A stretch of DNA of 4,536 bases from a virus (lineage: Duplodnaviria; Heunggongvirae; Uroviricota; Caudoviricetes). The stretch lies in the IMG/VR virus record IMGVR_UViG_2706794662_000008. One strand, 5' to 3'. Numbering within the stretch: the stretch's first letter is position 1; every line of letters starts with the position of its first letter. Positions 3,457 through 4,492 of the stretch are shown piece by piece. The position numbers were made by a program, and so were the translations under genes. The notes under the pieces were generated by a model. It was not told where the DNA came from and searched no databases. It saw nothing but the letters and a program-made list of their open reading frames with translations.

Positions 3457-3825
3457 TCGATCGACCTTCTGACGCGTGCTGTGATTATTTCGCTTTTTAC
3501 ATGGCGGCGTGCCGGGCGTGATGATGCACCACGGATATTTGGATGGTGGGGGGATACCTGGCCTGCGGTTCAGAATGATCGCACGGGGTCGCGTTTGTAT
3601 CTGTTGCGACGCAGCAAGCTGACAAATAAAACCCCGCAGCTTGCCAGAGATTATGTCCGTGAGGCGCTGGCGTGGATGGTGGAGGATGGTGTTGCTTCCC
3701 GTCTTGATATTAACGCTGTCCGGACCGGGACAGACTCGCTGGCACTTGCCATTACCATTTACCAGCGTGACGGCAATATTCACAACATTATTTTTGATGA
3801 TATCTGGAGTGAACTGAATGGCTGA
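3457..3825 (+). CDS. Baseplate wedge protein, GPW/gp25-like (Mu gp46-like), 5' end probably inside the N-run
   Basis: The frame is open from the gap edge to the TGA at 3823-3825. The first in-frame start after the gap is GTG at 3481, with no Shine-Dalgarno. Size and position between the spike and J-like genes fit Mu gp46. Its stop overlaps the gp47 start. Confidence 0.6.
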   Translation, partial: SIDLLTRAVIISLFTWRRAGRDDAPRIFGWWGDTWPAVQNDRTGSRLYLLRRSKLTNKTPQLARDYVREALAWMVEDGVASRLDINAVRTGTDSLALAITIYQRDGNIHNIIFDDIWSELNG

Positions 3826-4492
3826 CAGTCAGTTTTATCGCCCCGGCCTCCCGCAACTTATTTCTATGATCCGGAGCGATTTATTAACCCGCTTTGAGCA
3901 GGATACGCTGCTTCGTCGTATGGATGCGGAAGTGTATGCCCGTGTACAGGCTGCAGCCGTACACACGTTGTACGGGTATATCGATTATCTTGCCAGAAAT
4001 CTGTTACCGGACGTGTGTGATGAAGACTGGCTGTACCGGCACGCCAGAATCAAACGCTGCCCGCGAAAAGAAGCGGTGGCAGCCCGGGGATTTGTGCGCT
4101 GGGATGGCGTAGAGGGGACGCCGGTATTGCCAGCGGGAACGCAGATCCAGCGTGATAATCAGGTGACCTTTACCACGACGGCGACGGTGACCGCAGCCGA
4201 TGGTCTTCTCCGGGTGCCTGTTGTGGCAGACGAACCGGGATCGGCGGGGAATACGGATGATGGTATTGCCATGCAACTGGGAACACCCGTCAGTGGTCTG
4301 CCGTCCACAGGGTACGCTGACACCATTACAGACGGTGAAGATATTGAAAATCTGGAAATATGGCGTGCCCGCGTTATGGAACGTTATTACTACATTCCAC
4401 AGGGGGGCGCAGGTAATGACTCCAACTTATTGATAGTGTTTTATGTTCAGATAATGCCCGATGACTTTGTCATGCAGCTCCACCGATTTTGA
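3818..4492 (+). CDS. Baseplate J-like protein (Mu gp47-like), apparently truncated or fused: the last 26 codons and the stop lie inside the right repeat arm
   Basis: ATG at 3818 overlaps the gp46 stop. The first ~198 codons are in GC-rich unique sequence. From 4412 the ORF continues in the repeat ([26 protein letters not shown]). At 224 aa it is shorter than the roughly 300 aa or more I recall for J-like baseplate proteins. Confidence 0.7.

Follow-up and report, generated by a model that had tools for sequence, protein, structure and literature searches.

A baseplate gene that ends early at a contig edge: IS1 insertion in a Shigella sonnei prophage remnant

INTRODUCTION

Why should a phage baseplate gene that lies in ordinary GC-rich phage sequence run into a repeat and stop there, with nothing after it? 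The question is posed by the 3' end of a 4,536-nucleotide stretch of tailed-phage DNA (IMG/VR record IMGVR_UViG_2706794662_000008; the whole of this stretch is referred to below as the window), in which a gp47 (Baseplate_J)-like open reading frame (ORF) breaks off close to the edge. An earlier note made from the letters alone had offered two readings, a real disruption of the gene by insertion or rearrangement and an artificial junction. The outcome favors insertion: at all 10 loci compared (n = 10), a complete IS1 with a 9-bp duplication lies at this position, and neither an artificial junction nor a rearrangement fits what is found there. We consider it very likely (probability of roughly 0.96) that a simple IS1 transposition interrupted gp47 of a phiP27-like, Mu-tail-type prophage remnant of S. 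sonnei after codon 198 and that the contig ends within that element. The loci used for comparison are those of S. sonnei 53G (HE616528.1 [PMC5447701]; locus L006) and of nine other finished or near-finished S. sonnei chromosomes.

RESULTS

The ORF in question (3818-4492, plus strand) starts with ATG and encodes 224 amino acids (aa). Its product belongs to the Baseplate_J family (PF04865; E = 1.2e-24; 87.5 bits against a gathering cutoff of 21.1), but residues 69 to 201 cover only positions 2 to 137 of the 255-position profile, whereas a full-length 360-aa relative covers positions 2 to 255 with 183.5 bits; the ORF is thus a disrupted member of the family. The profile match had been expected to stop near residue 198, and it stops at residue 201. 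BLAST alignments to intact homologues end at 4411/4412, corresponding to nucleotide 594 of a 1,083-nucleotide gene, so that 198 native codons remain, and this native part has 97 to 99% DNA identity to the intact genes. The earlier note had given the ORF boundaries, a count of about 198 native codons, the start of the repeat at 4412, and a stop 26 codons later, and each of these values is correct; it had also described GC-rich phage sequence giving way to an atypical hydrophobic tail, and GC content does fall beyond about position 4400, with the tail translated from the repeat. The gene lies in a Mu-type neighborhood, with gp44, gp45, and gp46 identified upstream in the window by their Pfam domains and Phage_Mu_Gp48 (PF10076) downstream in the finished genomes.

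Two unlike parts therefore make up the ORF. Codons 1 to 198 of 360 (3818-4411, plus strand) are the native 5' part of gp47, as identified by the Baseplate_J profile, the DNA alignment, and an in silico reconstruction described below; the remaining 26 codons and the TGA stop (4412-4492, plus strand) are fortuitous: translation here runs through IS1 on the strand opposite the insB 3' end, and these codons overlap an insB ORF called on the minus strand at L006 10610-10987. The 224-aa ORF is a chimera of the N-terminal half of gp47 and IS1-antisense codons, and the gene is a pseudogene in two pieces.

The repeat that the ORF enters is present at both ends of the window: positions 1 to 125 and 4412 to 4536 were reported by a repeat finder as a 125-nucleotide inverted repeat with 100% complementarity, which cannot have arisen by chance. 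The same 125 bp occur at 71,725 places in 4,963 of 5,426 complete E. coli genomes, where they are annotated as IS1A/IS1B family transposase, which identifies the repeat as 125 bp from the end of IS1. On the left (1-125, plus strand; also identified in the finished chromosomes), these are the last 125 bp of an element, comprising the 3' end of insB and an IRR-type terminal inverted repeat that reads ...AATAAGTTGGAGTCATTACC; on the right (4412-4536, minus strand), they are the first 125 bp, beginning with the IRR-type end GGTAATGACTCCAACTTATTGAT..., of an element that is complete in L006. Position 1 of the window is already inside the left IS1, and position 4536 is still inside the right one.

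Complete copies of both elements are available in the finished chromosomes. The right IS1 occupies L006 10595-11362 (768 bp), where its insB and insA are minus-strand ORFs, and the left and right copies of 53G are identical to each other and opposite in orientation. Both L006 copies are 768 bp long, and the length is 767 to 768 bp in 10/10 finished loci. Each copy encodes insA (91 aa; PF03811/PF12759) and insB (125 aa; PF03400, DDE_Tnp_IS1) and is bounded by imperfect IS1-type terminal inverted repeats of about 23 bp, GGTGATGCTGCCAACTTACTGAT... and GGTAATGACTCCAACTTATTGAT..., also written as GGTGATGCTGCC... and GGTAATGACTCC...; the window itself holds the GGTAATGACTCCAACTTATTGAT end at 4412-4434 and its complement at 103-125. 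IS1 transposition classically leaves a 9-bp target duplication as its footprint, and each copy has one. The 9-mer GGGGGCGCA (4403-4411) stands immediately before the right IS1 and recurs past the far end of the element, while CGTTAAAAC (126-134) follows the left IS1 and recurs across it; each duplication is perfect at a length of 9 bp but at neither 8 nor 10 bp, and both are found in 10/10 finished loci.

What lies beyond the window could be read from the same chromosomes. The window matches S. sonnei 53G with 100% identity on both flanks of its N run. In all 10 loci the order is tape measure gene, 5' piece of a small gene, IS1 (plus), 3' piece of the small gene, gp43 to gp46, gp47 codons 1 to 198, IS1 (minus), gp47 codons 199 to 360, gp48, tail fiber gene, and tail fiber assembly gene, and the ORFs called past the right IS1 accordingly comprise a Baseplate_J_C ORF, Phage_Mu_Gp48, a tail fiber ORF, and Caudo_TAP. 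The earlier note had described the rest of gp47 and the next gene as absent, which is true of the window; in the finished chromosomes both are located directly past IS1, and the missing 3' part, which it had proposed to look for in the same genome, is found there. This 3' remnant (162 codons, including GACCCTGATTATGTTATCTGGGCG) matches PF04865 positions 136 to 255, complementary to the positions 2 to 137 matched in the window. Removal of the right IS1 and one copy of its duplication in silico restores a 360-aa ORF, which shares 359/360 residues with the uninterrupted gp47 of E. coli FDAARGOS_944 and 353/360 with that of RMDEC465. Some long-read assemblies yield a 366-aa reconstruction or a 767-bp IS1, and both look like homopolymer errors.

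The chimeric product is common in public data. An exact match to it was found in 226 blocks of a public assembly collection, 186 of which have a longest carrying contig of 2 to 5 kb, corresponding to the short contig of the window as it comes out of draft assemblies, and 20 of which carry it on contigs of >1 Mb, and the sources that carry it name S. sonnei, including Ss046 (UniProt Q3YYR0_SHISS). One finished genome, L013 (CP032523.1, 13398-14747), presents another picture: an exact gp43 is present, the 224-aa ORF is not called, and a 167-aa Baseplate_J_M/C ORF follows after a 1.35-kb uncalled gap, which may reflect a different structure at the gp47 site or a difference in gene calling or sequence error.

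Other searches returned nothing within their respective scopes. The gp47-IS1 junction (window 4262-4536) has no place covering at least 80% of the query in complete E. coli genomes, a collection that excludes Shigella, and a 40-bp version of the junction has no match among GTDB species-representative genomes. The reconstructed 360-aa protein has no exact copy in a collection of 15 billion proteins, and exact-sequence look-up found no uninterrupted gp47 allele with the S. sonnei-specific R238, which is weakly consistent with the insertion being present wherever that allele occurs.

These observations can be accounted for as follows. A 768-bp IS1 landed in gp47 with its IRR-type end facing the 5' part of the gene, duplicating the 9-bp target GGGGGCGCA. 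The gp47 frame continues for 26 codons into the element, antisense to insB, before reaching a stop, yielding the 224-aa product, and the other 162 codons, followed by gp48 and the tail fiber genes, were left intact directly past IS1. An identical second IS1 in the reverse orientation represents a separate insertion 4.4 kb upstream, in the small phage gene, with its own duplication CGTTAAAAC. Because each IS1 has a matched pair of duplications, the two are independent simple insertions, with no recombination between the copies and no movement of the intervening block as a unit. We infer that short-read assemblers fail on the many identical IS1 copies of such a genome and deliver a 4.5-kb contig with 125 bp of IS1 on each side; the apparent lack of anything after gp47 would then reflect a contig edge that falls within the element.

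Other origins for the early stop have to be weighed against this one. The window is visibly draft, scaffolded sequence, with an N run and the same 125 bp at both ends, and an assembly chimera or the construction of the window could in principle have attached unrelated sequence inside gp47. The identical junction is nevertheless found in at least 20 blocks of the collection with contigs of >1 Mb and at the 10 finished loci, there with a complete IS1 and the matching 9-bp duplication, and a chimera would produce neither a target-site duplication nor a reading frame that can be restored exactly; we regard such an artifact as exceedingly improbable. That the 224-aa ORF is instead a native, intact, short variant of Baseplate_J, with the repeat as part of its own coding sequence, might be argued from its gene call and its protein entry (Q3YYR0_SHISS), but its tail is the IS1 sequence of the 71,725 E. 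coli places, its profile match goes no further than position 137 of 255, and its phage and E. coli homologues measure about 350 to 360 aa. No full-length homologue shares the tail encoded at 4412-4489, the finding that the earlier note had said would speak for an intact ORF, and the probability left to this explanation is vanishingly small.

IS1 is also known to promote adjacent deletions and inversions, and the 3' half of gp47 and the genes downstream might have been lost or moved, leaving IS1 as the scar. The empty edge of the window past IS1 agrees with such an event, as does the loss of head genes beside other IS elements in the same prophage. Against it, 10/10 finished loci have the remainder of gp47 in frame right after the second duplication copy, and gp48 comes next; the matched duplications on each element point to simple insertions after which the copies did not recombine with each other. 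Deletion or rearrangement is accordingly very unlikely. For the finished genomes this and the artificial junction are rejected, and the 100% identity means that they can very probably be rejected for the window's own source as well. Recombination between the inverted IS1 copies could have inverted the 4.4-kb segment in that source genome, which would yield an identical contig; an inverted block was seen in 0/10 finished genomes. A composite transposon was likewise considered and set aside, since the outer flanks differ (CGTTAAAAC on the left, GGGGGCGCA on the right) and no single duplication surrounds the whole unit; the 9-bp duplications of each IS1, together with collinearity with intact prophages, exclude composite transposition as well as IS1-mediated deletion or inversion.

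Simple insertion of IS1 also accounts for the left edge of the window, where the interrupted gene is small. Its 3' part, from codon 34/35 onward, occupies 126-507 (plus strand) and belongs to a 160-aa product of PHROG family phrog_5586 (E = 9.7e-89); the ORF listed at 112-507 borrows its TTG start from IS1, and window position 126 corresponds to position 9001 of the intact E. coli relative L002, within the coding sequence 8900-9382 (WP_000594909.1). Pfam yields no family for this gene, and PHROGs gives only a family of unknown function. The gene has a low GC content (34 to 41%), lies between the tape measure gene and gp43, occurs in only 11 of 50 E. coli genomes with a match to the region, and is followed by a terminator-like hairpin at 515-540; it looks like a moron-type accessory gene.

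Between the two elements, an intact gene for a Mu gp43-like DNA circularization protein (554-1945, plus strand; PF07157, E = 3e-36), annotated as such in relatives, is followed by a Mu gp44/GpP-like baseplate hub gene (1942-3018, plus strand; PF21683, PF22255, PF22630, and PF21929). Two small variations were observed in the latter. An A run at 2971-2977 has seven residues in the window and 53G and eight in L002, and this 1-bp difference changes the gp44 end from ...ARKKKNVEEDF to ...ARKKKMLRRISDERVFSS, each followed by a stop (358 versus 351 aa), with a gp44/gp45 overlap that is now 23 bp; this may represent either another minor lesion of the baseplate operon or a slippery homopolymer. At 2490-2501, the copy number of an in-frame GCTGGT hexamer varies among S. 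sonnei strains, with one unit in the window, 53G, and the E. coli loci L001 and L002, two in L003, and three in L004 and L009; the segment of L008 equals that of L006 in length, and L005, L007, and L010 to L012 share a 12-bp insertion in the alignment. This variation takes the segment length from 4,406 to 4,418 bp.

The Mu gp45-like baseplate assembly protein V gene (2996-3326, plus strand; PF06890, E = 7.6e-27) has its 3' end under a run of 130 N (3327-3456), and the phage GP46 family gene that follows (3457-3825, plus strand; PF07409, E = 1.4e-31) has its true start there; in finished genomes the two products are 177 and 136 aa long. The flanks of the run align at 100% identity to L006 up to 9389 and from 9640, so that 250 bp of genuine sequence (L006 9390-9639; 53% GC), with the gp45 3' end and the beginning of gp46, lie where the window has 130 N. 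This difference in length rules out a length-preserving mask, and the run behaves as a scaffold gap of estimated size. Where the ORFs listed across it (2996-3472 and 3481-3825) end or start at the run, these boundaries are false.

The prophage is of the phiP27/ST64B/SfI type, which combines an HK97-like head with a Mu-like contractile tail, and damage to it extends well beyond gp47. In 53G it starts, after bamD, with IS4, a 120-aa fragment of the prohead protease, and an IS3-family element, followed by the sheath gene (L016, 1-4400). Genes for portal, capsid, connector, and tail terminator are gone from this copy and present in the intact relatives L014, L015, and L002; the S. sonnei copy is a tail-only remnant. 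The suggestion that the gp47 disruption makes the prophage defective thus does not hold for that lesion as the sole cause, as the whole head module has been lost and three more IS elements are present. At the other end, the S. sonnei copy is followed by smpB (L006 15900-17200). The related E. coli/enteroinvasive E. coli (EIEC)-like copies (L001, L002, L014, and L015) keep their head genes and carry ipaH (ipaHe, a type III secretion system E3 ligase) right after the tail fiber genes, and ipaH is missing at the corresponding position in S. sonnei.

DISCUSSION

In this study, we traced the premature end of a baseplate gene to an IS1 element in which the contig itself ends. The insertion is ordinary and already known, as the truncated protein has been public since the Ss046 genome and IS-driven pseudogenization in Shigella is well described; the locus is one further example of how IS1 erodes an S. 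sonnei prophage remnant and raises no new mechanistic question. Its practical value lies in how such windows are read. When an ORF at one edge of a short draft contig stops early within a repeat that recurs, inverted, at the opposite edge, the pattern is the signature of an IS-bounded contig in IS-rich genomes such as those of Shigella, and it should not be taken as gene loss or as a chimeric assembly. The insertion site in gp47 could also serve as a lineage marker.

The annotation of the product is a separate matter. The chimeric protein has been deposited as a "head assembly protein" (Q3YYR0_SHISS of S. sonnei Ss046, and ENA records), and this label is a misannotation, since in this product IS1-antisense codons extend the N-terminal half of a baseplate wedge protein.

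Because the head genes are gone, the element cannot produce phage. The half of gp47 that the window ORF lacks aligns with the C-terminal portion of the solved gp47 structure and holds the Baseplate_J_M and Baseplate_J_C domains, and with this half lost, the split wedge protein is predicted from its domain content to be nonfunctional. IS1 insertions are classically polar on downstream genes, and for this reason the element probably lowers expression of gp48 and the fiber genes from the late promoter. One could imagine that the 4.4-kb block from gp43 to the truncated gp47 is an invertible or mobilizable cassette, or that precise excision of IS1 restores gp47 and permits a tailocin-like particle in rare cells; 10/10 finished genomes are collinear and uninverted here and the remnant carries further IS damage, and we hold both ideas to be highly unlikely.

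Apart from the interruption, the locus closely follows known systems. Mu-type tails have the same gp43-gp44-gp45-gp46-gp47-gp48 order, the difference being that the window retains only gp47 codons 1 to 198 with 26 IS1 codons appended. The closest phage is the Stx2e phage phiP27, whose gp47 has 97.2% identity to the reconstructed protein over all 360 residues, compared with about 77% for ST64B and about 58% for SfI, and the closest solved chain is PDB 9ki1_H ("Baseplate protein gp47"), which aligns with residues 37 to 351 of the reconstruction (E = 4.4e-36). The inserted element corresponds to the IS1A/IS1B-type element of E. coli and Shigella in length, terminal repeats, insA (Zn_ribbon_InsA and HTH_Tnp_IS1) and insB, and the 9-bp duplication, and no difference from it was found.

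The genomic setting is equally familiar. S. sonnei carries hundreds of IS copies, IS1 being the most numerous of the expanded elements (Hawkey et al. 2020, PMC7373316), and IS insertions inside coding sequences yield pseudogenes in Shigella (PMC7373316); among the S. sonnei lineages, the same study describes an IS1 burst along the branch to lineages II/III. The gp47 locus is one case of pseudogenization by IS insertion, in a prophage that also contains IS4 and an IS3-family element. The placement of identical IS1 copies, one inverted relative to the other, around a 4.4-kb segment also recalls the IS1-flanked composite transposons, such as Tn9 and Tn1681, the latter with inverted IS1 copies. 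The likeness ends with that arrangement: at the S. sonnei locus, a separate matched 9-bp duplication flanks each IS1, and the DNA between the two elements is collinear with intact prophages.
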